Shown: piece by piece, positions 20,671 through 62,106 of the stretch | Numbering within the stretch: the stretch's first letter is position 1 | How the letters are laid out: each line of letters starts with the position of its first letter | Assembly (NCBI GenBank): GCA_029559035.1 | Contig: JAKQCT010000061.1 | Location: forward strand, 94,162 to 158,161 | Source of the DNA: Acidobacteriota bacterium | GTDB lineage: Bacteria; Acidobacteriota; UBA4820 | DNA: 64,000 bases | Direction: 5' to 3' | Program-made: the position numbers and the translations under genes | Notes under the pieces: model-generated | What the model was told of the DNA's origin: nothing | The model's input: the letters and a program-made list of their open reading frames with translations, nothing else | Databases searched by the model: none

Positions 20671-20908
20671 GAAGCGCTGATGGCTGACGCCAGACTGAAG
20701 GCTGAAGGGTCAACAAGGAAATGATTCCACAAATTTAAAATTTAATCTTTAAAATTTGATATTTAATATTCAAGCGAAGCCGCATGGCTGACGCCAGGCT
20801 GAAGGCTGAAGGCTGAAGGGTCAATAAGGAAACAGATTCCTCAATTTTTCACTTTTCAATTTTCATTTTTAAATTTTCAATCACGGTTAAATGCCCGGCG
20901 CAGCCGGC
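20671..20908 (+). repeat. modular intergenic repeat, 2 tandem units (locus R1)
   Basis: Each unit has tggctgacgccag, (gctgaag)2-3, the tcaa(c/t)aaggaaa..gattcc.caatttt core, an AT-rich (ttttcaa)n block, and a terminal hairpin (caagcgaagc / ccggcGCAgccgg). It ends at the macro-domain gene stop. Confidence 0.8.
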
Positions 20909-20909
20909 T

Positions 20910-21431
20910 TTAACCTAAATGCTTCGCCGATTCCATGAACGCCTGGTATGTCTCGTCGTCGAAGAGGACTATGTGGACCTCTTCGGGGTATTCGTGGGAT
21001 TCGAAGAAATCACGGACCGTATGCAGGAGTATCTCCGCGCCGTTTCTGACCGGGAAGCCCGCTATGCCCATCCCGACCGCCGGCATGGCGATCTTCGCGA
21101 ATTTCCACTCCTCGGCCCTTTTCAACGAATTGATAACGGCGTTCCGCAGGCTATCTTCAGTGCACGGTTCCCTCGTGCCCATAGCGGCCGCGTGGATGAC
21201 ATAATCGGCGGGAAGCAGTCCGGCGCCCGTGACAACCGCCTCTCCCAGCGGAATGGATCCTATCCTGTCGCACTCCCGCTGGATCGAGGGGCCTCCCTTT
21301 TCCCTGATGGCCCCGGCGACGCCTCCTCCAAGCACCAGTTCCTTGTTGGCGGCGTTGACTATCGCGTCGACCTGCATTTCGGTGATATCGCCTTTTTCTA
21401 TGAAGATGCGGCTGTTCAGGATTCCAGCCAT
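20910..21431 (-). CDS. macro domain protein (O-acetyl-ADP-ribose deacetylase, MacroD/YmdB-like)
   Basis: GDITEMQVDAIVNAAN...GGGVAGAI and HAAAMG motifs. Confidence 0.85.
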   Translation of the reverse strand: MAGILNSRIFIEKGDITEMQVDAIVNAANKELVLGGGVAGAIREKGGPSIQRECDRIGSIPLGEAVVTGAGLLPADYVIHAAAMGTREPCTEDSLRNAVINSLKRAEEWKFAKIAMPAVGMGIAGFPVRNGAEILLHTVRDFFESHEYPEEVHIVLFDDETYQAFMESAKHLG

Positions 21432-23662
21432 TTTTCGATCTCCTCCTCGGAAATAAGGATCTCGCGGGATTTAACCCCGTTGGGAGGGCCGACGATGCCG
21501 CGCTCCTCCATGTTGTCCAGTAGTCTCGCCGCCCTCGCGTAGCCCAGCCTCATCTTCCTCTGGAGGTTGCTGGCCGTGGCGATCTTCGTTGAAACGACCA
21601 GCTTGACGGCGTCCTTGAAGAGCGGATCCTCGTAATTGTCCGCGCTGTCGGCTTCCCCGCTCAGGATGTCGCTCTTCTCCTTGAGCACCACGCTGTCGAA
21701 CTCCTGAGGCGCCTGCCTCGCTATGTACTGGATCACCCTCTGCGTCTCGATGGTCGAAAGGAAACCTCCGTGGATCCTGATCACGCGCGAAGAGCCTGGC
21801 GGGAGGAAGAGCATGTCTCCCTTGCCTTCGAGCGTTTCCGCTCCGTTCTGGTCGAGGATCAGCCTGCTCTCCAGTTTTTCGCGCACCTGGAAGGCCACCC
21901 TGGCCGGCAGGTTGCTCTTGATGACGCCGGTGATTACATCCCTCGAGGGCCTCTGCGTGGCAATTATCAGGTGTATGCCGACGGCGCGCGCCATCGCGGA
22001 GAGCCTGCCTATCGCCGTCTCGACCTCCTTCGCGACGACCGCCATCAGGTCGTAGAGCTCGTCAATTACTATCACGATGTACGGGATCGGCCTGGTCAGG
22101 GGGATCGCTTCGTCGTGGCCGTGGGGCGTGAGCGTCTTCACGAACCTGTTGTACTGCTCGATCGACCTGACCTGCGCCGCCGCGAAAAGCTTGTAGCGCT
22201 CCTGCATCTCCTTGAGGACCCATGTCAGCGCGCTCGCGGCTTTCTTGACATCCGTGACGACGGGGGTGAGCAGATGCGGCAGCCCCTCGTAGATCTTCAG
22301 CTCCACCTGCTTCGGGTCGATCATGATGAACTTGACCTCTTCGGGGCTGGACCTGAAGAGGATCGAATTGATGAGTGCGTTTATCCCGACGCTCTTTCCG
22401 GAGCCGGTCGTCCCGGCGACAAGCAGGTGCGGCATTTCCGTGAGGCTCGAAACGTACGGCGTTCCGTCCACGAGCTTCCCCATGGCGAGGGGCAGTTTCG
22501 TCGTGCTTTTCCTAAAATGATCCGATTCGACCAGCTCCCTGAAAGATATGAGCTCTCTCGATTCGTTCGGTATCTCCACCGCGATCGTCGCCGCCCCGGA
22601 CATCCTGTCGATGCGGACATGCTCCTTCCTGAGCCTGATCGCGAGATCCTCGGACGACTGCACCACCTTGGAGAACTTCACTCCGGCGGCCGGCTTGAAC
22701 TCGTAGATAGTCACCACAGGGCCGGGATGGATCTCGAGAACCTCCCCGGGAATGTCGAACTCGCCGAGCTTCTCTTCGATCTGTTTCGCCTGGACAAGCA
22801 GGGATTTGTCGTCGTAGGGAAGCTTGGACAGCGGCGGATCCAGAAGGTCCGCCGGAGGCAGCCTGTAGTCGCTTTCGTCGTCCGTCTCGAGAGGCAGGGG
22901 GGGCGCTTCCGGCTCTTCCTCCTGCTTGGCCGGGGCCTTCTCCCTGGTCTTCTGAGGGGGGGACGCCTTCTTTGCGGCTTCCGTCTGCTGGGCCCACTTC
23001 AGCCGGGCCTCTTCCACTTCCTGCTTTTCTTTCTCTTTCCTGCTTCTTTCCTTTTTCAGCCTGCGGTTCTCGAGGTACTTCCTGAATGGCGACGCGGCGG
23101 CCCGGAAAGGAGAGAGGGGCGAGAACCCGAAAAGGAATGCGAGACTCAGGAGGAACCATACCAGCGCCACGGCGAGAGCGCCGATCATGCCCATCCACGC
23201 GGAGAGCAGGGCGCCGATCACTATCCCGAAGAGGCCTCCCGAATGGACCGCGGCGTTCTGGCCCCAGAGAAAGGGGTTGAACTCGCCCACGGTCACGCTC
23301 ATCAGGAGCGAGAAGCTTGCCGCGAGAGATCCCCAGAGGATCAGCGGATAGAGCGAGTTTCCGCAGAGGACCCGCCAGCCCGAATAGAAGAGCATCGCGG
23401 GAACGATCAGCGCCGCGAAACCGAGCATGCCCACGAGAAGGTCCGCGAGGTAGGAACCCAGCCCTCCTACCCAGTTCATGGGTATCTTCGAGAAATTTCC
23501 CACCGCTTTCGAGAAAAAGCCCGGATCGAGAGGATGATATGAAACAAGGGAAAGGAGCGCCAGCAGGCCGGCAATCCAGAGGACCACCACCACGCTTTCG
23601 CGCATGGCGGTCCGCGATCGGTCCGAAACCGGGCTTTCCTTCAACAATCCGTTCGAGGCCAA
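21416..23662 (-). CDS. ftsK: DNA translocase FtsK/SpoIIIE
   Basis: N-terminal 4-TM domain, Pro/Glu-rich linker, motor domain with Walker A GTTGSGKS, C-terminal gamma (winged-helix KOPS-reading) domain ASNLQRKMRLGYARAARLLD. Confidence 0.9.
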   Translation of the reverse strand: MASNGLLKESPVSDRSRTAMRESVVVVLWIAGLLALLSLVSYHPLDPGFFSKAVGNFSKIPMNWVGGLGSYLADLLVGMLGFAALIVPAMLFYSGWRVLCGNSLYPLILWGSLAASFSLLMSVTVGEFNPFLWGQNAAVHSGGLFGIVIGALLSAWMGMIGALAVALVWFLLSLAFLFGFSPLSPFRAAASPFRKYLENRRLKKERSRKEKEKQEVEEARLKWAQQTEAAKKASPPQKTREKAPAKQEEEPEAPPLPLETDDESDYRLPPADLLDPPLSKLPYDDKSLLVQAKQIEEKLGEFDIPGEVLEIHPGPVVTIYEFKPAAGVKFSKVVQSSEDLAIRLRKEHVRIDRMSGAATIAVEIPNESRELISFRELVESDHFRKSTTKLPLAMGKLVDGTPYVSSLTEMPHLLVAGTTGSGKSVGINALINSILFRSSPEEVKFIMIDPKQVELKIYEGLPHLLTPVVTDVKKAASALTWVLKEMQERYKLFAAAQVRSIEQYNRFVKTLTPHGHDEAIPLTRPIPYIVIVIDELYDLMAVVAKEVETAIGRLSAMARAVGIHLIIATQRPSRDVITGVIKSNLPARVAFQVREKLESRLILDQNGAETLEGKGDMLFLPPGSSRVIRIHGGFLSTIETQRVIQYIARQAPQEFDSVVLKEKSDILSGEADSADNYEDPLFKDAVKLVVSTKIATASNLQRKMRLGYARAARLLDNMEERGIVGPPNGVKSREILISEEEIEKWLES

Positions 23663-23760
23663 ATCCTTGTCCCTCCCTGACCTTCTCTGACCATTTAAAA
23701 ATACCTCTTTTCACGATTTATAGCAAGATTGACGGGGCATTGGAGGCGGTCGGGGCCGTT

Positions 23761-23788
23761 TTGTCCCAGCCGGGAATGAGGCTATAAT
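23761..23788 (+). promoter_or_regulatory. candidate sigma70 promoter for the MFS gene (TTGTCC-N16-TATAAT)
   Basis: ttgtcc 23761-23766, tataat 23783-23788. GGAG RBS and a TTG start at 23809 follow. Confidence 0.3.
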
Positions 23789-23808
23789 CAGCCATTGGAG
23801 ACGGTTCG

Positions 23809-25543: not shown

Positions 25544-25553
25544 TGCGGCCCTC

Positions 25554-28294: not shown

Positions 28295-28370
28295 TCAACT
28301 CCTTGCGGGCCTCAAAAGCCCAATAAATGGTATATCCTGGAGCAGGTTAAGTCAAGGCGATAACTCGCCG

Positions 28371-28431
28371 GCGCTGAAGGCTGATGGCTGATGGCTGATG
28401 GCAAGAATAAATAGGGAACAGGAATTGATCC
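28371..28431 (+). repeat. degenerate partial unit of the modular repeat (gctgaag then (gctgatg)3, with a diverged core)
   Basis: gcgctgaaggctgatggctgatggctgatggcaagaataaatagggaacaggaattgatcc. Confidence 0.5.
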
Positions 28432-28565
28432 CGCCCAAACAAGCCAGTGCGTGAAGAACCGGGATCTCGCGCCAAAACAGATCGAACCATGTCCCACTAT
28501 CCGCGAGCGAAAAAGCGCCTCCATCACTAATGACGGATTGGCGAGGCGGAGTGTCTATGGCGATA

Positions 28566-28833
28566 GGGCGGAAGGCTGACGGCTGAAGGCTGGTGTCCTT
28601 CGGACGGCGCTGAAGGCTGAAGAGTTGAAGCGCTGAAGTTAAATATGGAATGGGATCTCTTTGGTAGGCGCGGGCTTTACGCCCGCGGGCGCGCCCGTGA
28701 AGGGCGCGCCTACCCAAAAACCCCACGCTCTCGCTCTCTCCCTTTGCAAAGGGGGTTCAAGGGGGTTTTCCCACAATTTTTCACTTTTCAATTTTCAACT
28801 TTCATTTTTCATTGCAAGCGAAGCATCGCCCCC
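28566..28833 (+). repeat. modular repeat unit (locus R2) carrying a ~110-bp GC-hairpin insertion
   Basis: The heptamer block includes the gtccttcggac stem-loop sub-module. The core is interrupted at 28661-28770 by three GC palindromes. The unit then resumes with ttttcacttttcaattttcaactttcatttttcattgcaagcgaagcatcgccccc. Confidence 0.7.
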
Positions 28834-28845
28834 GGGCAATTGATA

Positions 28846-30072
28846 TCAGTCTGTTTTTACTTCTTTTTTTTCTCTGCTTGCAGGCACGAGGAAGATCATG
28901 AGGCCGAGCGCTGCGACGAGGAAGATCGAAACGAATACCGCTACCGTCCGCATCCCGTAAAGGTCCATGATCAGCCCGCCGGCGAAGGGGAAGGCGATCT
29001 GCGGGACCGTGTTCAAGAACCCGTGCCACGCCAGCACCGAGTGCCTGTCCTCGGGAGCGGGAAGCGCCATCATCCAGCTGTTCTGCGTCGTGAACTCCGA
29101 CGAGACATAGATCCCCAGCGCGACGGCCAGGAGGATGTAGGAGAAGGTGAAACTGCCGAAGATCATCAGCACCGTAGCTACGAGGAAAGCCGTCGTCGAG
29201 AAGACCACCGGGAACTTGTTGTTGACGCTGTCCCCCCACCTCCCCAGCGCAAGGCTCGCGACGGCCTGGGATAGGAGCAGGAAGACGCCGATCGAGATGG
29301 CGGCCGAGCTCGCCCCGTGCCTCTTCTCCATGTAATCGACGATATAGAAGGAGCTGACGATAAGGTAGCATCCCCTGAGTATCCACCTGAAGCCGCACAT
29401 CGGGATGAGCCAGTTGTATTTTTCCGCTAGCTTCCGAAAGGAGACATAAGGCGTTTCGTGGACGCCCTCGAAGCTCTCCTCCTTCGTCCCGAAGAAGAAG
29501 AAGGTCCCGACGAACATCGTCAGGAACGCGATGAGGAAGAGGACAGACGCCCTCGCCGCGTCGAAAGAAACCCCGTAGATGCGTGAGGCTGCCCATACGC
29601 CCAGCGCCCCCGTGAGTGTCTGGCAGAAGAAGATCAGGCCGAAGGCCCTCCCCCTCGCCGAGGGGTCGAGTATCTTCGCCATGTAGCTGAGCCATAGCGG
29701 CAGCACGAGTCCGATGGACGCGCAGTGGACGGCCCAGGCGATCAATATCACCGCGGCCGGCTTGCCGTAACCTCCGTAGAGCATTATCGATACGGCCAGC
29801 AATGGAAGCGTTACCGGGATGTGAAGAAGTATCAGGGGAAGTTTAAGCTTCCCCGCGCCGCCGAACAGCTTCGGGGAAAGCAATTGGGGAATCCCGACTC
29901 CGACGGAAGCGATGACCGGAACGAGGGCGATCTCGATATGGCTGGCTCCCAGGTCCTTCAGGATGACGGGTAGAATGGCGGACATCGAGATGATGTTCAT
30001 CCCCGCCCCCCAGAAAAGTTCTACGAGGCCCAGGAAAACCGTGTTCCGGGCGTGGACGCGTCCCTGTTCCAT
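28846..30072 (-). CDS. MFS transporter
   Basis: 12 predicted TM helices; MFS-like loop motifs. Confidence 0.7.
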   Translation of the reverse strand: MEQGRVHARNTVFLGLVELFWGAGMNIISMSAILPVILKDLGASHIEIALVPVIASVGVGIPQLLSPKLFGGAGKLKLPLILLHIPVTLPLLAVSIMLYGGYGKPAAVILIAWAVHCASIGLVLPLWLSYMAKILDPSARGRAFGLIFFCQTLTGALGVWAASRIYGVSFDAARASVLFLIAFLTMFVGTFFFFGTKEESFEGVHETPYVSFRKLAEKYNWLIPMCGFRWILRGCYLIVSSFYIVDYMEKRHGASSAAISIGVFLLLSQAVASLALGRWGDSVNNKFPVVFSTTAFLVATVLMIFGSFTFSYILLAVALGIYVSSEFTTQNSWMMALPAPEDRHSVLAWHGFLNTVPQIAFPFAGGLIMDLYGMRTVAVFVSIFLVAALGLMIFLVPASREKKEVKTD

Positions 30073-30081
30073 TTGAAAGGG

Positions 30082-33097: not shown

Positions 33098-33101
33098 CTC
33101 T

Positions 33102-45989: not shown

Positions 45990-46016
45990 CGTTCAGTTAA
46001 ATATTAACAATCATAA

Positions 46017-46045: not shown

Positions 46046-46128
46046 GGCTGAATTGCATTTTCCCGTTCCTTGCCATAAAATAATTTCTTGATAATTGAAA
46101 AACATCGCTCTTGAGAAGGGGGTATCAA

Positions 46129-49100: not shown

Positions 49101-50196
49101 GGTTTCTTCCGCGGGAGATGTCAACGGGGACGGGTTCACGGATTTAGCAATCGGAGCGCCATATTACTCCAACGGCCAGGCCAACGAGGGAAGGGTTTAC
49201 CTCTACTACAGTTCGGCATCCGGATGGTTCGATTCCTATTCGGTCATGGAATCGGACCAAACCGGCGCTTCACTTGGCATGTCGGCAGCTTCGGCGGGAG
49301 ACGTGAACGGGGACGGCATCGGAGACTTCATAACCGGAGTCCCCTGGTATGATAACGGTCAGACCAACGAAGGCGGGGCGTATCTTTTTTACGGAGGTAA
49401 ATCCGGCGGGGCCCAGATTAAACCAAGACAGTTCAGGCCGGATCATTCGGCGCAGATAGTCCCCGCGCTCTATTCCAATTCCGAGGATTCCTTCGCCGTG
49501 AGGTTCAACGCCTTTTCCTACTGCGGAAGGGCGCTCGCTAAGGTGGAATACCAATGGACCGAATACGGTTTCTTCAACCCCGCGAACTACGACACTTACG
49601 AGACCGACTGGATCGATCTTTCAATCCCTGGAACCCAAATGGATCACGTTTTTTCGTCCCTGCTGACCGATCATTTCTTCAAGTGGCGCGCCAGGCTGAA
49701 GTTCCACCCGAAGTACGGAGAACCCATTTTAAGCCGCTGGTATTATGTCCAGGGAAACTCCCTTGAACAATTCGACGTCAGGGTCGGCCTGGATGAAAGC
49801 GGAGACAACGACGGCGACGGAGTTCCCAACGAAACCGACTGCGCCCCTTACGACAACACTGTATGGGCAAGCCCCTCGCAGGCCGTTTCAAACCTTAAGA
49901 TCACGAGGGCTGCCACGGACAACTTTTCATGGTCCATGCCTCCTTCGGGAACATGGGGCTCTACTGCTCTCTCGATCGACATCCTGAGGAGCGACAGCCC
50001 ATCGATGTTCGACGGGAGCCACGCGACCTGCAGGGCGGCGAATCTATCCGACTCCACGGTCGCGTTCACCGACACCGCGGAGCCGATGAGCGGCAATGTC
50101 TGGTTCTACCTTTTAAGGCTCGAGAATGGCTGCGGTACCTTGAGCGGGTTCGATTCCCAAGGAACGCCAAGAGATCCGGACCTTGAATGTAATTGA
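46129..50196 (+). CDS. giant secreted FG-GAP (integrin-alpha-like) repeat protein (14 repeats) with C-terminal FN3-like Cys-bracketed module
   Basis: GAAGGGGG RBS, then signal peptide MKRSFAFQVSLLMLAAVVLAGVSSLG. About 14 repeats of the form FG.SVS.AGDVNGDGY.D...GAP...NG...EG..YV..GS..GL. The C-terminus has CAPYD...SW...C...GNVWFYLLRLENGCG...C, homologous to the Kelch protein C-terminus. Confidence 0.8.
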   Translation: MKRSFAFQVSLLMLAAVVLAGVSSLGQDKLLAGGGRVDLPPGASGDWWSTVQQNIMEEEYHFSPSSGEKNALYQAPNRAHGFRSYFNEKGVRLVPRTEEKPSWELGLELAGKAEGSRLKADVKADGDRIEINRGDIVEWYVNDENGLEQGFTILRPLPSTEPGKLSLDMKLTGNLLPRFSEDGLEVTFFKEGGISVLSYRELIVKDSEGRLLASGFIPIRGGIRISIDDDNAIYPITIDPMLSAPAWTWEPNQALASFGQSVSSAGDVNGDGYSDVIISAHRYDNGQNEEGRVYVFHGSASGLSSSPDWTAESDQAEAYFGHSVSTAGDVNGDGYSDVIIGARLFDNGQTNEGRAFVYHGSSSGLSPTPAWTAESDQGEAFFGMSVSTAGDINGDGYSDVIVGAPYYQSGVLEEDEGAVFFYPGSSSGLSPTSTWSRQGNLAGANFGYSVSNAGDVNGDGYSDIIVGARYYSNGQSEEGRVYVYPGSNKGLQAAIWIKELDIANANFGYSVSDAGDVNGDGYGDVTIAAPGTALAYVYHGSSSGPGSSAAWTGTGASCVSSAGDANGDGFGDIVTASAAYDNGQTDEGAGFVFFGSSSGLSATADWIGESNQTYAYLGSCSSAGDVNGDGFSDILLGSTYYSNGETSEGRAFLYYGSGSGIAATPSAVRDSNQAEAKFGTSVSSAGDVNGDGYGDILVGAPYYDNGQADEGAAFVYYGSYSGPSSTPDWIGESNNAGALFGFSVAPAGDINGDGFGDILVGAPEFTNGQAEEGATFAYYGSATGLSATPDWTVESDQGYSYFGCSVASAGDVNSDGRHDVIVGARYYYLGENWEGAAFVYHGSAAGLSLTPSWTGQSDQEDASYGFSVSGGGDINLDGYDDIIVGAPLFDNGNTDEGAAFVYLGSASGVHSSHYWRGECNQDGAWYGYSLASLGTVNRDTAPEIVIGAPRYSYGSLSEAGRVDIHTLYSLPDQSPEWTTGSDQAGAMMGYSVSSAGDVNGDGFTDLAIGAPYYSNGQANEGRVYLYYSSASGWFDSYSVMESDQTGASLGMSAASAGDVNGDGIGDFITGVPWYDNGQTNEGGAYLFYGGKSGGAQIKPRQFRPDHSAQIVPALYSNSEDSFAVRFNAFSYCGRALAKVEYQWTEYGFFNPANYDTYETDWIDLSIPGTQMDHVFSSLLTDHFFKWRARLKFHPKYGEPILSRWYYVQGNSLEQFDVRVGLDESGDNDGDGVPNETDCAPYDNTVWASPSQAVSNLKITRAATDNFSWSMPPSGTWGSTALSIDILRSDSPSMFDGSHATCRAANLSDSTVAFTDTAEPMSGNVWFYLLRLENGCGTLSGFDSQGTPRDPDLECN
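46464..46492 (+). repeat. in-frame heptanucleotide tract (ggctgaa ggctcaa ggctgaa ggctgat g) inside the FG-GAP gene
   Basis: It is the same heptamer as the intergenic repeat's (GCTGAAG)n block and encodes GKAEGSRLKADVKAD within the N-terminal domain. Confidence 0.6.
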
Positions 50197-50222
50197 CTGT
50201 CTCTGACTATTCACATCGACCT

Positions 50223-50250
50223 GGGCGCGATCCGTCGCGCCCTATTTTTT
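50223..50250 (+). terminator. rho-independent terminator after the FG-GAP gene
   Basis: gggcgcga-tccg-tcgcgccc followed by tatttttt. Overlaps the stop of the convergent small ORF. Confidence 0.5.
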
Positions 50251-50469
50251 CCGCAGCTCCCTTCTTTTCCTGAACCACTCCTCCGCGGCTGTCAGCGCGC
50301 CCGCAGACCATTTGCCGAAGCCGACTCTTGTCATGATCCTGTCCAGGCCGTTTATCATCCAAAGGATCCATCTTTCGGCTGTGAAGACAAGAACGGCCAG
50401 CAGGAAGGCCGCCAGGATGGTCGTGACGAGAAGAATCAGCGTGATCATGGACCCATTATAACCCGTCAA
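50242..50469 (-). CDS. small membrane protein, hypothetical
   Basis: 75 aa with one strong TM helix (ITLILLVTTILAAFLLAVLVF) and a basic C-terminus. Confidence 0.4.
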   Translation of the reverse strand: MTGYNGSMITLILLVTTILAAFLLAVLVFTAERWILWMINGLDRIMTRVGFGKWSAGALTAAEEWFRKRRELRKK

Positions 50470-50470
50470 G

Positions 50471-50734: not shown

Positions 50735-50747
50735 TCAACTGTATAAT
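50719..50747 (+). promoter_or_regulatory. candidate promoter for the AsmA-like gene using the repeat terminus as -35 (TTGCCT-N17-TATAAT)
   Basis: ttgcct 50719-50724 (the end of the repeat hairpin), tataat 50742-50747 preceded by tg. The ATG is at 50821. Confidence 0.35.
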
Positions 50748-50820
50748 CGTTCGGGGTGAAACACGGATGGTGTTTATGAACGAAAAAGAATGACTGCTCT
50801 GAAAGTCAAAGGGTGAAAAG

Positions 50821-52797
50821 ATGAAATTCCTCGCGAAAGTTTTTGTCGGCCTCGGTTTTATTTTTCTTTTTTTCCTGATCGGAGCGGTCGCTCTCTACAT
50901 TTTCGGCGGGAACTGGGCGGTAAATTCCGGGTTCCTGGAAAACCTGCTGAGCCGTCACCCGGAGCGTTTCAAGATCGAATGGGAGTCTGGCAAATTCTCC
51001 ATGCCCGGCACATTCAGGCTCGAAGGACTCGCCATAAAGAGCCGCAGCGCGGGAAGGGAAACCCTCATCAAAGCGGACAAGTGCGAACTCAAGATAAAGC
51101 CTCTCAAGCTCTTCCTCTGCAAGGCGGACTTCAGGGATGCCCGGGCTGAAGGCTTCACCCTCTGGACGAGGCGGAACGGAGAAGCAGGCGCGCGGGACCC
51201 GCTTGCGCCCCCTATAACGGAAAACGCCGGAAACACCGGCCACCACGGAGGGGGCGGAAAAATCGCCTCACCTTGGAGCCTCAGCTTCGGAAAACTTAAG
51301 ATCAACGAAATCCGCGAGATCTGGATAGACTCCTACAGGACCAACGGGGTATGCTCCGCGGAAGCGAACTTCTATTTCCGGATCAGGGGCGCCATGGAAG
51401 CGCGCGACGTACGGTTCTCCCTGAAAGACGCCACCATGAGGAAAGGCGCCGAAACTATCGCCTCGGGACTTGGCCTGGACATTGACGGCAGCATCGACCG
51501 CGTGATTCCGGCGAAACACAAAGGGCGTGCTTTTCTCCGTTTCGTAAACGCCAGATGCAAGGGAAAAGGCGATGTGCGGAGTCTCGGGTTCCTGAACCAG
51601 GCTTTCGGGGATAACGCCCCGGTCAGGTTCACCGGGAACGGAAACCTCCTGATGGACATATCGATAGCTCAAGGAGTCATCGGCCCCGGGTCTTCGCTTT
51701 CATGGAGCGGGAAGGGACTGACCGGCTCATCGGCGGGCGTCTCGGCGAAAGGAGACGGAGCTCTCTCCGGAGGCACCGGCGCCGGCGGAACGGCTTTCTC
51801 GCTGACCGCCAAATGGTCGAAGATCGTTGTTTCCCTGGAAGGTATACCGCCGATCCCGATCGAAGGGCCGGGATTGACCGCGGTCGTCACCACGCCCAGG
51901 CTTGACCTTGCGTCAGACAACGACGATCTTGCCGCGAAGCTTGACCTGCCGGAATCAAGGATATCCAACTTGTCGCTTCTTAACGGCTTGCTTCCCCCTC
52001 AAAGCCCGGTAGCGTTCAGTCCGGGATCGGAGGGCCGTCTCAGGGCCAACCTGGAACTGAAGGACAAGGACCCTCGCGGAGAAGCTTATATCGAAGGGAC
52101 CCGTGTCGGTATCAGCCTCAAGCAGCAGTCCTTGCGCGGCGATTTTCACGCCCTGCTGCGCTTGAGCGGAGGAGACCTCAAGGCGAAGACATTCGACATT
52201 TCAGGGAGCAAATTCGGCCTCGGGAACGCGGACCTGACAAATTCATCCGGTCAGGTTACCGATAGAGGATGGAAGGGAGATGTAGCTCTTTCGGAATCTT
52301 CTCTCAGGCTTTCGGTTCCTGCCGCGATAAAGACGAAGGCAGAAGTGACATTGTCCGACACCCGCCCTGTAATGGCCGCGCTGATACCCGAGAACAAAAT
52401 GTCGAAGTGGCTGGATCCTATCCTCGACATTCCAGATGTGAGAGGCACCGCCGAGATCGAGACCGACGGCAAGAGAACGACCGTCAGGAACGCCGACCTT
52501 CGCGGCCGCGACCTCCGCCTCATCGCGGACCTGACCATGTATGAAGGTCTCACCGAAGGTACGATGCGGGCAGAGTACCACGGCCTCTCGGGGACCATAG
52601 CTTTCAAGGGCCGGGACGTTGAGCTGAACATGGGCGGATTGAAGGTAGGCGGAGACATAGGAACTTTGGGGAAGATCGTAACCGACGTTGTGACAGACGA
52701 TGCGAACGTCGACAAGGCGGTCGGAGCCGCGAAAAAGGGATTGGACAAACTTAAGAAGCGATTCGGGAAGAAAGAAAAGGAAGGCGAGAACAAGTAG
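50821..52797 (+). CDS. AsmA-like / DUF748-type envelope protein (N-terminal TM anchor, long Gly/Ser-rich beta-rich periplasmic region)
   Basis: MKFLAKVFVGLGFIFLFFLIGAVALYIF anchor, followed by an AsmA-like N-terminal segment (ERFKIEWESGKFSMPGTFRLEGLAIKS...). Remote similarity only. Confidence 0.45.
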   Translation: MKFLAKVFVGLGFIFLFFLIGAVALYIFGGNWAVNSGFLENLLSRHPERFKIEWESGKFSMPGTFRLEGLAIKSRSAGRETLIKADKCELKIKPLKLFLCKADFRDARAEGFTLWTRRNGEAGARDPLAPPITENAGNTGHHGGGGKIASPWSLSFGKLKINEIREIWIDSYRTNGVCSAEANFYFRIRGAMEARDVRFSLKDATMRKGAETIASGLGLDIDGSIDRVIPAKHKGRAFLRFVNARCKGKGDVRSLGFLNQAFGDNAPVRFTGNGNLLMDISIAQGVIGPGSSLSWSGKGLTGSSAGVSAKGDGALSGGTGAGGTAFSLTAKWSKIVVSLEGIPPIPIEGPGLTAVVTTPRLDLASDNDDLAAKLDLPESRISNLSLLNGLLPPQSPVAFSPGSEGRLRANLELKDKDPRGEAYIEGTRVGISLKQQSLRGDFHALLRLSGGDLKAKTFDISGSKFGLGNADLTNSSGQVTDRGWKGDVALSESSLRLSVPAAIKTKAEVTLSDTRPVMAALIPENKMSKWLDPILDIPDVRGTAEIETDGKRTTVRNADLRGRDLRLIADLTMYEGLTEGTMRAEYHGLSGTIAFKGRDVELNMGGLKVGGDIGTLGKIVTDVVTDDANVDKAVGAAKKGLDKLKKRFGKKEKEGENK

Positions 52798-52805
52798 ACA
52801 ACGGG

Positions 52806-53056
52806 GCGGAAGACTGACGGCTGGCGCCAAGTATGAAGGCGGACTAGCTAGGAGGCGGGGAAGCTAGGAAGCTTGAAAGCTCCATAAGGAAATATATTCC
52901 ACAATTTTAATATTTTCATTTTTCAATCTTCAATTTTCAATTCAGGCGAAGCCATACGGCTATCGCCAGCGCTGAAGGCTGAAGGCTGAAGGTTCAATAG
53001 GGAAAATGATTTCTTAATTTTTCAATCTTCAATTTTCAATTCAGGCGAAGCCTGCT
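52806..53056 (+). repeat. modular intergenic repeat, 2 units (locus R4)
   Basis: ...ccataaggaaatatattccacaattttaatattttcatttttcaatcttcaattttcaattcaggcgaagcc..., then gcgctgaaggctgaaggctgaaggttcaatagggaaaatgatttcttaatttttcaatcttcaattttcaattcaggcgaagcctgc, ending at the adh stop. Confidence 0.8.
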
Positions 53057-54096
53057 CAGCTCAGTGTCAGCACCTTCGCGCCCCTGATCTGCCTCTGCTT
53101 GATCTGCTTGAGGGCCGTCACGGCGTCTTCAAGGTGAAAGAGCTCGACCTGAGGCTTGATGCCGAATTTATCCGCGAGCTTCAGGAATTCGTCGATGTCT
53201 TTCCTGGTCACGTTGGCCACGCTCTTGATTTCTTTCTCCTGCCAGAGGTGTTTTCCGTAATCCAGCAGCATCAGCCCCCCCTTGTCCGTGTTCTCTTTTC
53301 TTATGGCGTTGATAACAAGCCTTCCCCCCGGCTGAAGATTCTCCATGGCGCATACTACCGTTTTCCACACGGGAGTGGTGTCGATCACCGCCTTCATTCT
53401 CGCGGGGGGCTTGTCCGAAATGTCGCCCGTCCATTCCGCCCCGAGTTCTTTCGCGAACGCCCTCTCCTTGGCGCTTCTTGCGAAGACATAGAACCTGTTC
53501 TCCGGGTAGAGCGACTTGGCCAGCTTGAGAACAAGGTGCGCCGAAGCGCCGAACCCAGTGAACCCCAGATGGTCCCCCTCCTTTATGCCCGAGAGCTTGA
53601 GCGACCTGTATCCCACTGCTCCCGCGCAGAGTAGTGGCGCGGTCTCCTCGTCGGTCAAGCTGCGCGGCACCTTGAAGGCGAAGTTCTCGTCCGCGACCAT
53701 GTACTCGGCGTACCCGCCGTCCATGTCCCTTCCGGTCGCGATGTAACCCTCGCATAGGTTCTCCATCCCGCCCCGGCATTTCTCGCATTTCCCGCACGCC
53801 CAGCCTATCCATCCTACTGCGGCTCTTTCCCCAATCGTGAACTTGCGGGCGCTCGTGCCCCTCGCGACGACAGTCCCGACCACCTGGTGTCCCGGAATTA
53901 CGGGGAATTCCGGCGGAGGCGTCCTCCCCTCTATCTCGTCGAGTTCCGTGTGGCAGACGCCCGATGCCGAGACCTTGACGAGTATCTCGTTCGTCTTCGG
54001 CTCGGGGACCTCGCACTCGATCAGGTCCAGCAGGCGCCTGTCGTCGAGCACGCTTCCCGTCCTGTTTATCACCCACGCCCGCATCTTAGAAGGCAT
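53056..54096 (-). CDS. zinc-dependent alcohol dehydrogenase (MDR family)
   Basis: GVCHTELDEIEG (catalytic Zn), structural-Zn Cys cluster CGKCEKCRGGMENLC, GxGxxG-like NAD site. Confidence 0.85.
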   Translation of the reverse strand: MPSKMRAWVINRTGSVLDDRRLLDLIECEVPEPKTNEILVKVSASGVCHTELDEIEGRTPPPEFPVIPGHQVVGTVVARGTSARKFTIGERAAVGWIGWACGKCEKCRGGMENLCEGYIATGRDMDGGYAEYMVADENFAFKVPRSLTDEETAPLLCAGAVGYRSLKLSGIKEGDHLGFTGFGASAHLVLKLAKSLYPENRFYVFARSAKERAFAKELGAEWTGDISDKPPARMKAVIDTTPVWKTVVCAMENLQPGGRLVINAIRKENTDKGGLMLLDYGKHLWQEKEIKSVANVTRKDIDEFLKLADKFGIKPQVELFHLEDAVTALKQIKQRQIRGAKVLTLS

Positions 54097-56383: not shown

Positions 56384-56388
56384 GAAGG

Positions 56389-56835: not shown

Positions 56836-57320
56836 CCCTCATCCCCGTGTTTGTGACTCTCTGGCCGGTGGGGCTCGGCGAGGCGCTTGACCTCCTCGAT
56901 GAACTCGCTGATGTCTCCGAACCTCCTGTAAACGCTCGCGAAACGGACATACGCAACCTGGTCGAGCTCCTTGAGCCTGTCCATGATGATGTTGCCTATC
57001 GTGCTCGTCGGGACTTCCCTGTCGGGAGAGTTCTGAATGAGGCCTTCTATCTCGTCAGCGATCCCCTCGAGCGTCGAGGAAGGCACGGCCCTCTTCTCGC
57101 AAGCCCGGAAAAGCCCGGCGAGGAGCTTTTCCCTGTCGAACTTCTGACGGTTGCCGTCCCTCTTGACGACCTGGAACGGGATCGTTTCTATCCTTTCGTA
57201 GGTAGTGAACCTGCGGTGGCAGTCGAGGCACTCGCGCCGCCTCCTGATGCTTGCGCCCTGGGAGACCTCCCTGGAATCCACCACTTTATCTTCCATATGA
57301 CCGCAAAATGGGCAGAGCAC
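56832..57320 (-). CDS. nrdR: transcriptional repressor NrdR
   Basis: MLCPFCGH...DSRE zinc ribbon (CxxC...CxxC) plus ATP-cone. Confidence 0.9.
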   Translation of the reverse strand: MLCPFCGHMEDKVVDSREVSQGASIRRRRECLDCHRRFTTYERIETIPFQVVKRDGNRQKFDREKLLAGLFRACEKRAVPSSTLEGIADEIEGLIQNSPDREVPTSTIGNIIMDRLKELDQVAYVRFASVYRRFGDISEFIEEVKRLAEPHRPESHKHGDEG

Positions 57321-57381
57321 TGTGCACCTCCTTGAAAAAGTCTACAACATATAGTTATAAGTGTAAATAGCAAGTCAATAT

Positions 57382-57673
57382 AGGGCTGATGGCTGGCGCC
57401 TAGGCTGAAGGCTGAAGGCGGATGGCTGGTGTCCTTCGGACGGCGCTGAAGGCTGAAGCGCTGAAGTTCAATAAGGAAAATGATTCCTCAATTTTGATAT
57501 TTTCAATTTTCAATTTGATATTTTAAATGCAGGCGAAGCCTGCCGGGCTGACGCCAGAACTGAAGAGCTGAAGCGCTGAAGGCTGAAGTTCAATAAGGAA
57601 AATGATTCCACATTTTTTCACTTTTCAATCTTCACTTTTCATTTTTCAATTCAAGCTACGCTTGCCTATCCCC
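57382..57673 (+). repeat. modular intergenic repeat, 2 units (locus R5), including the gtccttcggac sub-module
   Basis: ...ggctggtgtccttcggacggcgctgaaggctgaagcgctgaagttcaataaggaaaatgattcctcaattttgatattttcaattttcaatttgatattttaaatgcaggcgaagcctgcc | gggctgacgccagaactgaag...caagctacgcttgcctatcccc. Confidence 0.85.
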
Positions 57674-57697
57674 TATTTGCCTGACCTCCCATCCTTT

Positions 57698-58762
57698 TCA
57701 GTAATAAAGATTGGGACCCCAGTTCGGAGTTTCGCCTTTATTGATGGCTTCCATGAAACAATTCGCCTCTTTCCAGAAGCTTGAACATTTCCCTAAAAAC
57801 TCGAGGACTACCTTTTTTTCTCCCTTTTCCAACAATTCCTTGGCGAGCGTCAGGTTGGGCCCGAAAGTATCGAGGTTTGGAGAACCGGGCGACTCCGAAG
57901 CTTTCAGCAGGAAGCTCTTCGCCTCATCCATTTTCCCTTCGCGCAGGGCTATTCTCCCCAGGACAAGGTTGCCGTCATAAAGCGCGTTGCCGTAATTCCA
58001 GTTCTTCATGTCCTTTTGGGCATTTTTCAGCAGAAGTCTGGCATAAGTTCCGGCCTTTTCGATCTCATCAGCTTCAAAAGCACATTTCGCAAGATCGTTA
58101 AGCAGAGGGAACCGGTACTCGTCATTTGTCTTTGCAAGAGCATAAGCTTCTTCCAAAAGCGCGAGAGCTTTGGCGTTCCTGTTTCTTGTCGATCCGGCAT
58201 CATCCTTTTCCGTCTGCCTTCCCAGGCGGTACAAGTGCGCAAGTTCTTCCGGCCATTTTGGATTGGCAGGTTCGAGTTTCTTGCATCTCAGGAACAGTTC
58301 TTCGGAGGTTGTTCTTTCGTAAAGCGTAAGAGCCCGCGCCGCGTTGCCGAGTATCGAGGCATCGGCCGGGTTTCTCTTCACGTGCCTGAGCCAGAGCTTC
58401 TTGCCTTTTTCATAAGCCTTTCCGTCAATCCTTGGATCGAGGGCGCACTCATAAACGGCCATCTTCGAGGCGGGAAAGTTATTGATGACCCAGAGAGCGT
58501 GCTTGGCGAACAACTTCCTGGCCTCAGGAGAGGATAACCGCTCCGTTCCATAATGTATAAGCAGTTTTTCCCTGGCCGCCAGATCAGAAGGGTTCTTTTT
58601 CACCTGGTTCTCTAGAGATGTAATCTCCTCTGCCGACATATTCCACTTCGAGATCAAATAGTCAGCATCATTCGATTCGTCTTCCGGTGGTCCCGCGATA
58701 GCGAAAACGGAAAACAGAAGGATCGCCGCAGAAAGGAATAATCTGTTGTTAGATCTGCGCAT
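57698..58762 (-). CDS. exported TPR-like repeat protein, hypothetical
   Basis: Start at the internal ATG (MRRSNNRLFLSAAILLFSVFAIAG, signal peptide) preceded by GGGGAGG. Helical repeat composition throughout. Confidence 0.55.
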   Translation of the reverse strand: MRRSNNRLFLSAAILLFSVFAIAGPPEDESNDADYLISKWNMSAEEITSLENQVKKNPSDLAAREKLLIHYGTERLSSPEARKLFAKHALWVINNFPASKMAVYECALDPRIDGKAYEKGKKLWLRHVKRNPADASILGNAARALTLYERTTSEELFLRCKKLEPANPKWPEELAHLYRLGRQTEKDDAGSTRNRNAKALALLEEAYALAKTNDEYRFPLLNDLAKCAFEADEIEKAGTYARLLLKNAQKDMKNWNYGNALYDGNLVLGRIALREGKMDEAKSFLLKASESPGSPNLDTFGPNLTLAKELLEKGEKKVVLEFLGKCSSFWKEANCFMEAINKGETPNWGPNLYY

Positions 58763-58787
58763 ACTTACCTCCCCTTCAACCATTTCC

Positions 58788-58987
58788 TTTTTTGCTTTTC
58801 ATTTTTCACTTCTCATTTTTCAATCTTCAATTTTAAATGCAGGCGAAGCCTGCCTGGCTGACGCCAGAACTGAAGCGTGAAGCGCTGAAGCGCTGAAGTT
58901 CAATAAGGAAAATGATTCCTCAATTTTGATATTTTCAATTTTCAATTTGATATTTAAAATGCAGGCGAAGCCTGCCTCCCCCCCTCC
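58788..58987 (+). repeat. modular intergenic repeat (locus R6): partial AT-rich/hairpin unit plus one full unit; 3' end overlaps the PPC-protein CDS terminus
   Basis: ttttttgcttttcatttttcacttctcatttttcaatcttcaattttaaatgcaggcgaagcctgcc | tggctgacgccagaactgaagcgtgaagcgctgaagcgctgaagttcaataaggaaaatgattcctc...aaaatgcaggcgaagcctgcctccccccc. Confidence 0.85.
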
Positions 58988-59772
58988 TGCCACGCGTTGG
59001 CGAGCCTGTTGTAGAGGATGGTGGTCGACTGGTTTGTTCCGCTGATGATCGTGATCGGCACCCACGATCCGTCCTTGGGGAACATCGCCTTGAGGGCGGC
59101 TCCCTTCTTCAGTTTCAAAAGGGTCGTCTCCTTGACAGTGAAATTGGTCCACTCGTTTCCGTTGATCACCACCCTTGTTCCGCTGTAGAACCTGTTCCCG
59201 AAGATCAAAAGCCTGAAGGGATTCCCTGCCTTTGAAAGACTGCTGACGGAGGGAGCTTCTCCCTGAGCACCCACGTCGACCCTCAGGAAGTAATCTGTCG
59301 GTCCCGGTTCGAAGCAGTAGTAAATAGTCGAGAGGCTGACGCCGATGATATAGGTCCCAGGCTCGAGATAAGTGTTCACGATCTCGGGGTTGCCGCAGGT
59401 TATCCCGCAGGTGTAATCGCCGCACTCGTTCAGGTTCAAGAGGTTAAGGTCCTGATCCATCAGGTATAGGTCTGCATCCACATATCCGTAAAAAAGCAGG
59501 TTCACGGAGTAATAACCGGCCTGTGAAACCGTTAAGGCGTAAAGGTCCTCGATATATTCGTCGCCGTCATCATACCCGAAGTAAAGACAGCCTTCGGTAT
59601 CTTGCGTCGAGACCGAACCGTAAACTCCCATCCCGGGATGAAGCGTCTGATAGGCGTCTCCGCCCCCCGCGAGGGTTATGCAGCCGTTAGGCTCCGCTTC
59701 GTTTATGGTCTGCGAGAATGCCGAGATCCCCACAAAAATAACAATCGACAGAACAAAAAGAGCCTTTTTCAT
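58954..59772 (-). CDS. secreted protein with pre-peptidase C-terminal (PPC)-like domain and Ig-like domain
   Basis: Signal peptide MKKALFVLSIVIFVGISAFS. EAEPNG...GGGDAYQ...DDGDEYIEDLYALTVSQAGYYSVNL...DADLYLMDQD matches PPC-domain motifs. The last 8 codons plus stop lie inside repeat R6. Confidence 0.6.
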   Translation of the reverse strand: MKKALFVLSIVIFVGISAFSQTINEAEPNGCITLAGGGDAYQTLHPGMGVYGSVSTQDTEGCLYFGYDDGDEYIEDLYALTVSQAGYYSVNLLFYGYVDADLYLMDQDLNLLNLNECGDYTCGITCGNPEIVNTYLEPGTYIIGVSLSTIYYCFEPGPTDYFLRVDVGAQGEAPSVSSLSKAGNPFRLLIFGNRFYSGTRVVINGNEWTNFTVKETTLLKLKKGAALKAMFPKDGSWVPITIISGTNQSTTILYNRLANAWQEGGRQASPAF

Positions 59773-59798
59773 ATCAACCTCCGTTTTACAGCGCCATT

Positions 59799-61181: not shown

Positions 61182-61255
61182 CTTTCCTCCAAGGAATTAT
61201 TATATCAAAGACCGGGAACGGGGAAGGATGGATCGTCCGCAGGGGGCGCACTATC

Positions 61256-61565
61256 AAGAGCTGAAGGCGGATGGCTGAAGGGTCAATAGGGAAAATGACT
61301 CCACCAAATTAGATTCTTCATTTTTCAATCTTCCATTTTTAATTCAAGCGAAGCTCGTGCAGCGCTGAAGGTTTAAGGCTGAAGCTCATTAAGGAAATGA
61401 ATACCACAAATTTCAAATTTGAAATTTAATCCTTAAAATTTAAAATGCAGGCGCTGACTGCAGGGCTGAAGTGCTGAAGTTCAAAAAGGAAATGGATTCC
61501 TCAATTTTAATATTTTCAATTTTCATTTTTCAATTTAAAATTCAAGCGAAGCTTGTAACTCCCCC
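61256..61565 (+). repeat. modular intergenic repeat, 3 units (locus R7)
   Basis: Three consecutive units, each with gctgaag-type heptamers, a tcaa.aaggaaa.g..t.c core, an AT-rich (ttttcaa)n block, and a terminal caagcgaagc / gcaggcg.. hairpin. It ends tcccc, 5 nt before the STAS gene stop. Confidence 0.8.
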
Positions 61566-61570
61566 TTTCC

Positions 61571-61900
61571 TCAGAACGATCTCAGCGCTTCTTCTTCCGT
61601 GTCGTAGATGTCGAAAACGGTGGAGAGCTTCGTGATGTCGAGAATGCCCCTGACATTCGTGGTCGGATTGGCAAGCTTGACGACCGCCTTGTAACGCTGG
61701 GCGCTGACGAGCGATGAAACAAGCTCGGCGAGGGCGGCGGAACCCATGATGGGGATGCCTCCCATCTCGAGGACGATCCTTTTTACTCCCTTGCGGAGCA
61801 TTTCGAGGACTGTCTCCCTCAAGAGGTTTTCTTCCTGGCCTATCTTTCCGGTCAGGCGTAAAAGAGCCACTCCGTTCATAAGGATGGTTTCTGACTGCAT
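61571..61900 (-). CDS. STAS domain protein (anti-sigma factor antagonist, SpoIIAA-like)
   Basis: Start at the internal Met (MQSETILMNGVALLRLTGKI...). Conserved phosphorylatable Ser region (GIPIMGSAALAELV). Confidence 0.7.
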   Translation of the reverse strand: MQSETILMNGVALLRLTGKIGQEENLLRETVLEMLRKGVKRIVLEMGGIPIMGSAALAELVSSLVSAQRYKAVVKLANPTTNVRGILDITKLSTVFDIYDTEEEALRSF

Positions 61901-61983
61901 GGATCCTCCCGACAAAGATTTTACCACAAGTCAAGCCATAAACTTATATATAACAATGCGAAAAGAAGACTGTTCAGGCGGCG

Positions 61984-62106
61984 CTTGCCGGGCTGATGGT
62001 TAACCCCAGACCTGAAGTTCAATAAGGAAATGGATTCCACAGGTTTAATATTTTCAATCTTCATTTTTCAATTCAAGCGAAGCTTGTTCTCTCCGCCTGT
62101 TACCTT
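61984..62106 (+). repeat. modular intergenic repeat, 1 unit preceded by an orphan hairpin (locus R8)
   Basis: caggcggcgcttgcc gggctgatggttaaccccagacctgaag ttcaataaggaaatggattccacaggtttaatattttcaatcttcatttttcaattcaagcgaagcttgttctctccgcc. Confidence 0.8.

Follow-up and report, generated by a model that had tools for sequence, protein, structure and literature searches.

What is the AT-rich, modular sequence that recurs between the genes of a 64-kb stretch of an Acidobacteriota genome (contig JAKQCT010000061.1, positions 94,162 to 158,161; hereafter the window), and which of its two strands is the relevant one? A preliminary description of the window had reported about 15 copies (units) of this sequence at 8 loci, spread over nine intervals, and had regarded them as a novel-looking family of repeats. 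The analysis presented here indicates that the family is real, apparently undescribed, and confined to a narrow Acidobacteriota clade. On balance, it is best understood as a lineage-specific mosaic intergenic repeat of the kind represented by repetitive extragenic palindromes (REPs) and the bacterial interspersed mosaic elements (BIMEs) that they form, by BOX and by ERIC, and as one that is co-transcribed with the upstream gene as a module of its 3′ untranslated region (3′-UTR).

Detection within the window relied on a reading of the nine intervals, pattern matching, a repeat-family search and a profile hidden Markov model (HMM) trained on an alignment of 13 window units. Units of the described type were present in all nine intervals on reading, and pattern and profile searches located 15 units, all of them + strand, in 8 intergenic loci, against a chance expectation of none; the profile thus returned the numbers of units and loci originally given. 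The 21-nt core TTCAATAAGGAAAATGATTCC was matched nine times at up to 3 mismatches, always on the + strand (0 expected), the dimer of the GCTGAAG array (GCTGAAGGCTGAAG) 30 times against 0.6 expected, and the TTTTCAA-type dimer (TTTTCAATTTTCAA) 35 times against 0.5 expected, with the heptamer-array matches within elements falling on the + strand without exception. The repeat-family search returned a single family of 13 copies and 93 nt. The 15 profile matches had E values of 1e-10 to 1e-32, again all on the + strand, and an extra weak match was found at 28605-28659. An optional GUCC-UUC-GGAC sub-module, which had been noticed at two distant loci, was recovered by the repeat-family search as two copies of 73 nt that are 86% identical (28558-28630 and 57394-57466). 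The covariance models of Rfam 15, run at gathering scores on both strands of the whole window, gave no match, and a permissive scan of 57300-59050 at E values of up to 10 gave chance-level matches only (at most 17 bits, against thresholds of 36-70); a known Rfam family, one of the outcomes that would have overturned the preliminary description, was therefore not found. A tRNA gene scan of the window was also empty.

Look-ups with the exact sequences of NrdR, Lon and a Na/Ala symporter assigned the window to metagenome-assembled genomes of uncultured Acidobacteriota and to several metagenome assemblies. The family extends beyond the window. A looser core pattern, scanned over metagenome contigs, gave 51 loci, in 38 of which the profile confirmed units; further loci from strains and a sister species were gathered via protein look-ups, and about 560 kb of sequence from the lineage was covered. 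Over all gathered loci, the profile made 213 matches, which reduce to approximately 90 distinct units; these occupy 39 distinct loci of 1-4 units each, all of them intergenic. Because about 31 of the distinct intergenic loci are further ones on other contigs of the same lineage, the family is dispersed and is not a local duplication, the other outcome against which the preliminary description had warned. Activated sludge is the only environment named in the contig titles. Among GTDB species representatives, a strict 24-base pattern had a sole match, which lies inside archaeal coding sequence and is due to chance; viral contigs, plasmids and phages yielded no members, the seven viral pattern matches being chance matches in contigs of 38-42% GC. 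A text search of the literature with the heptad dimers found no description of the family, only unrelated primers, in agreement with the novelty that had been proposed for it.

Unit length varies from 73 to 179 nt, with a median of 113 nt, and the A+T content of units is about 60%, in a genome of 58% G+C. Read on the + strand, as in the preliminary description, a unit has first a short palindrome, either CTGGC-TGAC-GCCAG or the variant TGTCC..GGACA, which is followed by 0-11 GCTGAAG-like heptads, with octamer variants such as GCGCTGAAG, by the core TTCAATAAGGAA-N5-TTCC, by an AT block and by a terminal hairpin with the consensus AAT-GCAGGC-GAA-GCCTGC-C. The units are therefore modular and intergenic with a variable number of internal subunits, as had been said of them, the variable part being the GCTGAAG array. 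The AT block is 41 nt long in 30 of 38 units and differs from this length by multiples of 7 in the others; it has a GC content of 16% and comes in two subfamilies, a TTTTCAA type and an AAATTTN type, which recur at unlinked loci. The GGAA and TTCC arms of the core are nearly invariant, with a variable 5-nt loop between them (AATGA, ATTGA, ACAGA, ATAGA, ATATA and others), and in one unit the GGAA/TTCC stem has been lengthened by an inserted CGCAGG..CCTGCG. Coding sequence, too, holds a GCTGAAG-type heptad array in at least one case: a fifth (GCTGAAG)4-like array (GGCTGAAGGCTCAAGGCTGAAGGCTGATG) is located at 46458-46492, without the remaining parts of a unit, inside an open reading frame (ORF) of 1361 aa with FG-GAP repeats (46111-50196, + strand).

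The terminal hairpin is maintained through compensatory change. In 28 distinct hairpins, the third pair (positions 7-15) is GC in 15, AU in 12 and CG in one, and is unpaired in none; this covariation was reached by 0 of 500 shuffles. A separate count over 43 hairpins gave 230 Watson-Crick pairs and 20 other pairs. The loops are variable (GAA, GCA, TAC, ATT, ACA, CCA, GAC and others).

The orientation of the units relative to neighbouring genes was determined over the gathered loci. Genes in the metagenome loci were called with a simple codon-usage caller, which, when applied to the window, reproduced nearly all gene calls attached to public contigs, with a few gaps. Under strict criteria, by which a flanking gene had to score 20 or more and lie no further than 400 nt away, 22 loci have the hairpin/AT end toward a gene 3′ end and 5 have it toward a gene start (p=0.0015), while the opposite end of the unit has no bias (14 vs 11). 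With all flanks counted, the hairpin side is directed toward a gene 3′ end in 29 of 37 cases, and at loci between co-directional genes the ratio is 15 to 2. If E denotes a unit on the strand on which the family was described and arrowheads denote genes, the two-flank count comprises 15 loci of the form '<E<', 10 of '>E<', 6 of '<E>' and 2 of '>E>', i.e. 15+2 co-directional, 10 convergent and 6 divergent contexts. As the hairpin end faces stop codons, the strand that runs with the genes is the complement of the one given in the preliminary description, and it is this complement, rather than the + strand of the window, that is most likely the relevant one.

In gene sense, the order of parts is stop codon, hairpin, (TTGAAAA)5, GGAATCATTTTCC, (CTTCAGC)n, CTGGCGTCAGCCAG. 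The hairpin has a GC stem of 5-6 bp and a variable triloop (GCAGGC-TTC-GCCTGC or CAAGC-TTC-GCTTG), the A-rich block consists of five TTGAAAA-like heptads, the core contributes the mini-palindrome GGAA-N5-TTCC, and a second small palindrome, CTGGC-GTCA-GCCAG, lies beyond the CTTCAGC array. The distance from stop codon to hairpin is 0-33 nt in the window and, for the family, usually 0-30 nt. With the hairpin only a few bases after the stop codon, the unit is expected to be transcribed within the upstream mRNA, and since there is no room for a terminator before the hairpin, upstream transcription must enter the unit. At the far side of the units, a promoter-like TTGACT-N17-TATAAC of NrdR starts right after a unit, in a 95-nt stretch that is 100% conserved between the window species and a sister species (loci L069-L071), and a promoter-like extended -10 element of a Na/Ala symporter (TGATATAAT) likewise lies right after a unit. 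That promoter-like sequences begin directly past the units places the units at the boundaries of transcription units.

The stretch upstream of nrdR is an observation in its own right. Approximately 95 nt (57321-57385 on the - strand of the window; 3592-3686 in L069) are identical in both species, whose synonymous sites are saturated, and include the AT-rich inverted repeat ACACTTATAACTATATGTTGT; this block presumably represents an autoregulated nrdR promoter and operator.

Related genomes proved to be polymorphic at orthologous loci, a comparison that the preliminary description had proposed. Strains that are 99.7-100% identical to the window differ from it at element loci in three ways only. 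In the window and three assemblies, locus D (loci are lettered A to H along the window, and units numbered within them) has two units, which are represented in seven near-identical assemblies by one hybrid unit, a 99-nt difference with a 39-nt overlap at the junction; strain L041 has one 112-nt unit fewer at locus A; and strain L065 has lost 15 nt (7+8) of heptads from unit F2. No insertion at a new locus was found among the near-identical strains compared. These differences show that the arrays change by recombination or slippage between repeats. Units E1 and F2 are 99% identical, and two units in the array at L019 are identical to each other, which indicates recent copying or gene conversion.

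The sister species is considerably more distant, with a coding identity to the window of 76-88% and four-fold degenerate sites that are saturated, at 33-53% identity, except in the gene for a tetratricopeptide-repeat (TPR) protein (76%). It nevertheless has units at orthologous gaps: after a 276-aa gene, before the TPR gene, between the TPR gene and nrdR, and after an alcohol dehydrogenase (ADH) gene. The family consequently predates the split of the two species. The ADH-proximal unit of the sister species is nearest to its positional counterparts, D2 (97%) and D1 (90%), and its last 48 nt, comprising AT block and hairpin, are 100% identical to those of D2. The unit after the TPR paralogue of the sister species is 91% identical to E2, and the paralogue itself is 74% identical at the gene level. 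At locus C, the one place where a filled site could be compared with an empty one, the sister species has no units, and the 'empty' site keeps half a hairpin. In a more distant relative, L072, with 74-80% identity at the nucleotide level, gaps are compact and hold no units. The units have thus remained recognisable long past the point of neutral decay, whether because of selection or because copies converted one another.

Together, the stop-codon polarity, the co-transcription, the kept hairpin, the A-rich spacer of fixed length and the persistence across species fit a 3′-UTR module, which is why this is considered the probable, if by no means certain, explanation of the family. Repeats that are co-transcribed are known to modulate mRNA stability (PMC3184786). 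In the proposed mechanism, the unit would serve as the 3′-end module of the upstream mRNA; the stop-proximal hairpin would block 3′-to-5′ exonucleases, and the unstructured A/U-rich block would either let an endonuclease in or act as a spacer that insulates transcription units from each other. A more specific form of this proposal is quite unlikely, namely that the unit is a selected, strand-specific 3′-UTR device in which the hairpin, the 41-nt heptad spacer and GGAA-N5-UUCC provide a platform on which an oligomeric RNA-binding protein or ribonuclease recognises the 7-nt period. If true, mRNA 3′ ends would be set by such a platform, and adjacent transcription units insulated by it, genome-wide in the lineage, and changes in heptad copy number would tune its effect between strains.

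Several observations weigh against a 3′-UTR module. We infer the role at the RNA level from position only, and position at the metagenome loci depends on genes called by a crude codon-usage method. At 8 of 33 loci, including C and H in the window, the hairpin is directed toward a gene start or the unit is antisense to both neighbours. All 8 loci in the window are on one chromosome strand, including those in 2 convergent and 2 divergent gaps, and a shared strand at gaps where gene orientation is neutral hints at a second effect, one of the chromosome strand. The asymmetry between G·U and A·C in the hairpin favours the co-transcribed strand weakly (4 cells vs 0), and the hairpin may form at the DNA level. 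Finally, the sister unit in the TPR-NrdR gap shares only 80% identity with E2, its counterpart by position, a value no higher than the family background, and the conservation across species could reflect gene conversion among copies and not selection.

The strand effect is among the features that would be explained if the units were selfish, non-autonomous elements similar to PATEs or REPs, moved as single-stranded DNA by an HUH/Y1 transposase of the IS200/IS605 or RAYT type. The end hairpins would then be recognition structures, and the polarity would follow from insertion into one replication strand combined with tolerance only outside genes. This explanation is possible but less than likely. 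Similar short palindromes are present at both unit ends (CAGGC..GCCTG and CTGGC..GCCAG), with no long terminal inverted repeats or target duplications seen, and the 8 of 8 window loci on one strand include 4 gaps where the orientation of genes predicts nothing; in the metagenome set, however, both orientations are found within single contigs. The recurrence of the AT-block subfamilies at unlinked loci, as if copied from master elements, the 99% identity of E1 and F2 across 1.3 kb, and the start of an element exactly at the former stop codon of a 272-aa gene all suggest mobility, but the strain polymorphisms are all gains or losses of units inside existing arrays, and orthologous persistence despite saturated synonymous sites is unexpected of neutral junk. 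The same genomes hold GTAG-tagged REP doublets, the usual substrates of RAYTs (PMC3733652), yet a by-eye reading of 64 ORFs located within 2.5 kb of units revealed no Y1 transposase or RAYT. The sole neighbouring ORF scanned against Pfam is an IS256/Mutator fragment: a truncated transposase ORF (L019, 393-1028; PF00872, E=2e-33) beside a three-unit array. It was rejected as a partner, as it adjoins this one array only and its ends are unrelated to the unit. GGGGA/TCCCC was likewise rejected as a general insertion target, being present at 7 of 38 loci only, against a background of 4.6%. A selfish origin and a 3′-UTR function are compatible and not mutually exclusive.

A double-stranded function is very unlikely. 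In such a function, the AT heptad block between the palindromes would be a binding site, at the boundaries of transcription units, for gyrase, a nucleoid-associated protein or a regulator; E. coli BIMEs, which bind integration host factor (IHF) and gyrase, provide a precedent (PMC3184786). A block of 16% GC in a genome of 58% GC, fixed at 41 bp between two palindromes, would suit such a site, as would the location of units where one transcription unit has ended and the promoter of another follows (NrdR, Na/Ala symporter). The 7-bp period is, however, out of phase with the DNA helix, a double-stranded site does not need a strong stop-codon polarity, no IHF consensus (WATCAANNNNTTR) was seen in either orientation in units read by eye, and no candidate protein is known. 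It is hardly credible that the + strand is expressed on its own, either as small RNAs with a long (GCUGAAG)n/(UUUUCAA)n G·U hairpin or as a hydrophobic peptide resembling a type I toxin. UGAAGG can pair with UUUUCA at 6 of 7 positions per heptad, and the minimum free energy fold of E2 draws such a hairpin; folding is, however, barely better than that of dinucleotide shuffles (over 49 units, mean z of -0.53 for the + strand and -0.69 for the - strand), and the two arms do not co-vary, the G-rich heptads numbering 0-11 and the AT block being fixed. The near-shuffled z-scores, from single units as well as from the 49, and the non-covarying arm lengths led to the rejection of the long hairpin. Within the core, AAGGAAAATG looks like a ribosome-binding site with a start codon after it, and Joint Genome Institute gene callers put ORFs of 34-68 aa in some units, but the N5 loop in which the ATG would lie is variable and the reading frame is shifted by heptad indels, so that a peptide or type I toxin was rejected because there is no conserved start codon or reading frame across copies. 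At most loci the + strand is, moreover, antisense to the flanking genes.

Three conventional signals were considered and rejected. The units are not canonical intrinsic terminators, because the gene-sense hairpin is followed by an A-rich tract (ATTGAAAATTGAAAA) and not by a U-tract; even under a permissive rule of 5 T in 8, only 3 unit hairpins pass, and a canonical terminator with hairpin and T-run is used elsewhere in the window, at 50223-50252. A Rho-utilisation site on the sense strand finds no support in a C/G ratio of only about 1.17 over whole units. Sigma-70 promoters borne by the element gave 16 matches against 4.8 expected, yet on both strands, an enrichment that is attributable to AT-richness.

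Unit coordinates are those of the + strand profile matches, and each unit is assigned to the - strand, the strand inferred to be co-transcribed with neighbouring genes. Locus A consists of units A1 (20673-20782, E=1.8e-22), which has an AAATTTN-type AT block and a decayed terminal hairpin, and A2 (20786-20906, E=1.1e-26), in which a longer hairpin (GGTTAAAtGCCCGGCgcaGCCGGCTTTAACC) replaces the terminal one and abuts, at a distance of about 1 nt, the stop codon of a Macro-domain gene (20910-21431, - strand). A ribbon-helix-helix antitoxin and ParE toxin pair is located immediately upstream of this locus, at 20189-20666. The interval 28371-28431, which had been called degenerate, does contain a GCTGAAG/GCTGATG array and a decayed core, but has no AT block and is below detection by the profile, and is therefore merely a remnant (- strand). 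Downstream of it, 28566-28833 does hold a unit, as described, but only one, B2, which is split by a nested GC-rich element: the heptamer half, with the optional GTCC-TTC-GGAC sub-module, is at 28566-28659 (E=0.0015), and the AT block and terminal hairpin are at 28770-28825 (E=6.9e-11), 21 nt from the stop codon of a major facilitator superfamily transporter gene (28846-30072, - strand).

Locus C is a divergent gap between a 75-aa ORF (50242-50469, - strand) and a 658-aa ORF (50821-52797, + strand). Its units are C1 (50489-50602), which was identified by reading and by the profile, and C2 (50605-50722, E=2.9e-29). The 75-aa ORF encodes a hydrophobic protein with no Pfam match that is conserved in the sister species; the C units are inserted upstream of it in the window species only. 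At locus D, D1 (52819-52953, a profile match) has a variant G-rich array of the AGCTAGGA type, and the terminal hairpin of D2 (52958-53055) abuts the stop codon of the ADH gene (53056-54096, - strand) at 0 nt. Locus E includes E1 (57391-57543, E=5e-32), which carries the optional sub-module and shares its 99% identity with F2 over 93 nt, and E2 (57546-57665, a profile match), whose hairpin and the stop codon of the TPR gene (57698-58762, - strand) are 33 nt apart. Compared with L069 2274-3338, this TPR gene has a four-fold identity of 76%, against 33-53% for its neighbours, and the sister species has a tandem TPR paralogue (375 aa) with its own repeat unit, which suggests recent exchange or conversion in the TPR segment.

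On the other side of the TPR gene, F1 (58801-58853) is a half unit of AT block and hairpin only, which stops about 25 nt upstream of where the TPR gene starts, and F2 (58856-58975) overlaps the end of the 272-aa ORF (58954-59772, - strand). This ORF runs through the terminal hairpin of F2 and stops at a TAA in its AT block, so that F2 supplies the last six codons (QASPAF) and the stop codon (58954-58975). In the element-free relative L072, the ORF ends six residues earlier, at GGGGGGAAGA-TAA (...WQEGGR*), and in the sister species it ends in QALPSFKSEK; the first base of the element coincides with the former stop codon, and no target duplication is obvious. The same comparison bears on the TCCCC that had been taken for the end of the unit. 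At 58976-58990 it is coding sequence and is also present in L072, where there is no element, and the tail is consequently flanking sequence, consistent with its presence at 7 of 38 distinct loci against the 4.6% background. Locus G has three units, G1 (61256-61357), G2 (61359-61461), with an AAATTTN-type AT block, and G3 (61460-61555), all of them profile matches; the hairpin of G3 is 15 nt from the stop codon of a STAS-domain gene (61571-61927, - strand). H1 (61987-62086) occupies the divergent gap between the STAS gene and an outer-membrane efflux gene.

The element nested in B2 (28660-28715, no strand assigned) belongs to another repeat family. Inserted beside the B2 core, it is a head-to-head doublet in which two inverted, GC-rich palindromes carry GTAG on their outer sides (GGTAGGCGCGGGCTTTACGCCCGCG / GGCGCGCCCGTGAAGGGCGCGCCTACC). 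A GTAG doublet is found at the equivalent spot in the ADH unit of the sister species (L069, approximately 7996-8055), a different GC-rich insert at a core-adjacent spot at approximately 3445-3520 of L069, and a GTAG palindrome after the array in L019 (approximately 432-458). The core-adjacent position is thus a hot spot for small GC-rich elements. By the published definition of the GTAG tag (PMC3733652), the nested palindromes are GTAG-type REPs, a separate family in the same genomes; a 2013 survey of GTAG- and CGTC-tagged REPs listed none for Acidobacteriota (PMC3733652). Elsewhere in the window, a low-GC island (approximately 14900-18100; 44-47% vs 58%) lies within a 1520-aa ORF (13513-18075, - strand) that has about 13 tandem repeats of 150-162 nt, Kelch beta-propeller repeats and a CBM96 domain, and was probably acquired horizontally.

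The results add a well-delimited repeat family to the Acidobacteriota, one in which clean stop-codon polarity is combined with conservation past saturated synonymous divergence, a combination that is rare among REP-like families. There are also practical consequences. Repeat units break short-read metagenome assemblies, public contigs L005-L010 and L066 beginning or ending inside a unit at window positions 57453, 57478 and 58877, and knowledge of the family aids binning and scaffolding. Heptad arrays and the gain or loss of units could be used as strain markers in wastewater communities. If the units do have a 3′-UTR role, they would be a natural system for the study of non-terminator hairpins and A-rich spacers at mRNA ends in non-model bacteria.

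The preliminary description had likened the units to BOX, Correia and REP elements while holding them distinct from all three. For the most part, REPs are found downstream of genes, in gaps flanked by unidirectional or convergent ORFs (PMC3733652), and the units share this location, at 22 loci against 5. They also resemble REPs and BIMEs in their short GC-rich hairpins, in their many intergenic copies, mainly downstream of genes and co-transcribed (PMC3733652, PMC3184786), in forming mosaic clusters with other motifs, and in copy-number differences between strains. In contrast to REPs, the terminal hairpins of the units lack a GTAG or CGTC tag (the CGTC in CTGGCGTCAGCCAG sits at the centre of a palindrome and not at its end), and most of the unit is AT-rich heptad repeat and not palindrome. 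Within an array, the units are arranged head-to-tail on one strand, unlike the alternating orientation in BIMEs, and no associated RAYT was present among the 64 neighbouring ORFs read by eye.

BOX of Streptococcus pneumoniae has a boxA-boxB(n)-boxC module structure. The units are similarly modular, with a variable number of internal subunits. Like BOX (mentioned in PMC3184786), they are intergenic, often near gene ends, and restricted in their species range. BOX belongs to a different phylum, however, and has no sequence relation to the units; its variable part is a 45-nt module, compared with a 7-nt microsatellite here, and the units are also tandem as wholes and are strongly divided into AT-rich and GC-rich parts. 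With ERIC and Correia elements, which are miniature transposable elements with inverted repeats (MITEs), the units share a length of about 100-150 nt, an intergenic location, co-transcription at gene 3′ ends (PMC3184786), an orientation that matters for mRNA fate, and internal hot spots for the insertion of small elements; ERIC is known to create RNase E sites (PMC3184786). Unlike these MITEs, the units have no long terminal inverted repeats, their ends being only two similar palindromes with 5-bp stems, and neither a TA target duplication nor an IHF site was seen. The whole unit is not one stable imperfect palindrome as ERIC is (z of about -0.5 to -0.7), and no insertion sequence with the ends of the unit was found among the lineage loci examined. 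PATE-like elements derived from IS200/IS605 are marked by subterminal hairpins at both ends, a lack of terminal inverted repeats and target duplications, insertion 3′ of a short fixed target, and an orientation tied to the replication strand; the units show hairpins at both ends, a weak candidate target (TCCCC/GGGGA at 7 of 38 loci), and a shared strand at 8 of 8 loci in the window but mixed strands within other contigs.

BrickBuilt of Porphyromonas gingivalis (PMC4596501) has a leader and a tail with small inverted repeats around a spacer-free tandem array, is always intergenic, and has tens of copies in a narrow host range, all of which recall the present units. Its repeat is 23 nt long, against 7 nt here, it carries bidirectional promoters, and it is reported to lie 49-591 nt from coding sequences, whereas the units abut stop codons; there is no sequence relation between the two. 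Repeats of the SPRITE-like terminator kind differ in that no U-tract follows the unit hairpin, and CRISPR arrays, already set aside in the preliminary description, differ in that the units abut without spacers. The STRR heptamers of cyanobacteria are a family of tandem heptanucleotides. Heptanucleotide elements (GGGACCG x4) are also found in Geobacter metallireducens, where they occur inside genes as well (PMC2700814), and heptameric repeats are in general excess in bacteria (PMC4692102). Such families resemble the present one in having short 7-nt tandem arrays at many intergenic sites of one lineage, but their heptamers are others, and here GC-rich and AT-rich arrays are joined in a unit with three palindromes and a core; the multicopy nucleotide sequences and heptanucleotide elements of Geobacter were rejected as relatives because their sequences and consensus are different. 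Species-specific mosaic intergenic repeats downstream of genes are well known (PMC3733652, PMC3184786, PMC4596501). The earlier comparison accordingly stands in that the units show the behaviour of this class without the defining marks of tagged REPs, BIMEs, MITEs or ERIC, and is qualified in that mosaic repeats 3′ of genes are themselves nothing new. The kind of element is already familiar from REP, BOX and ERIC; what is new here is the family, and not the type of system.

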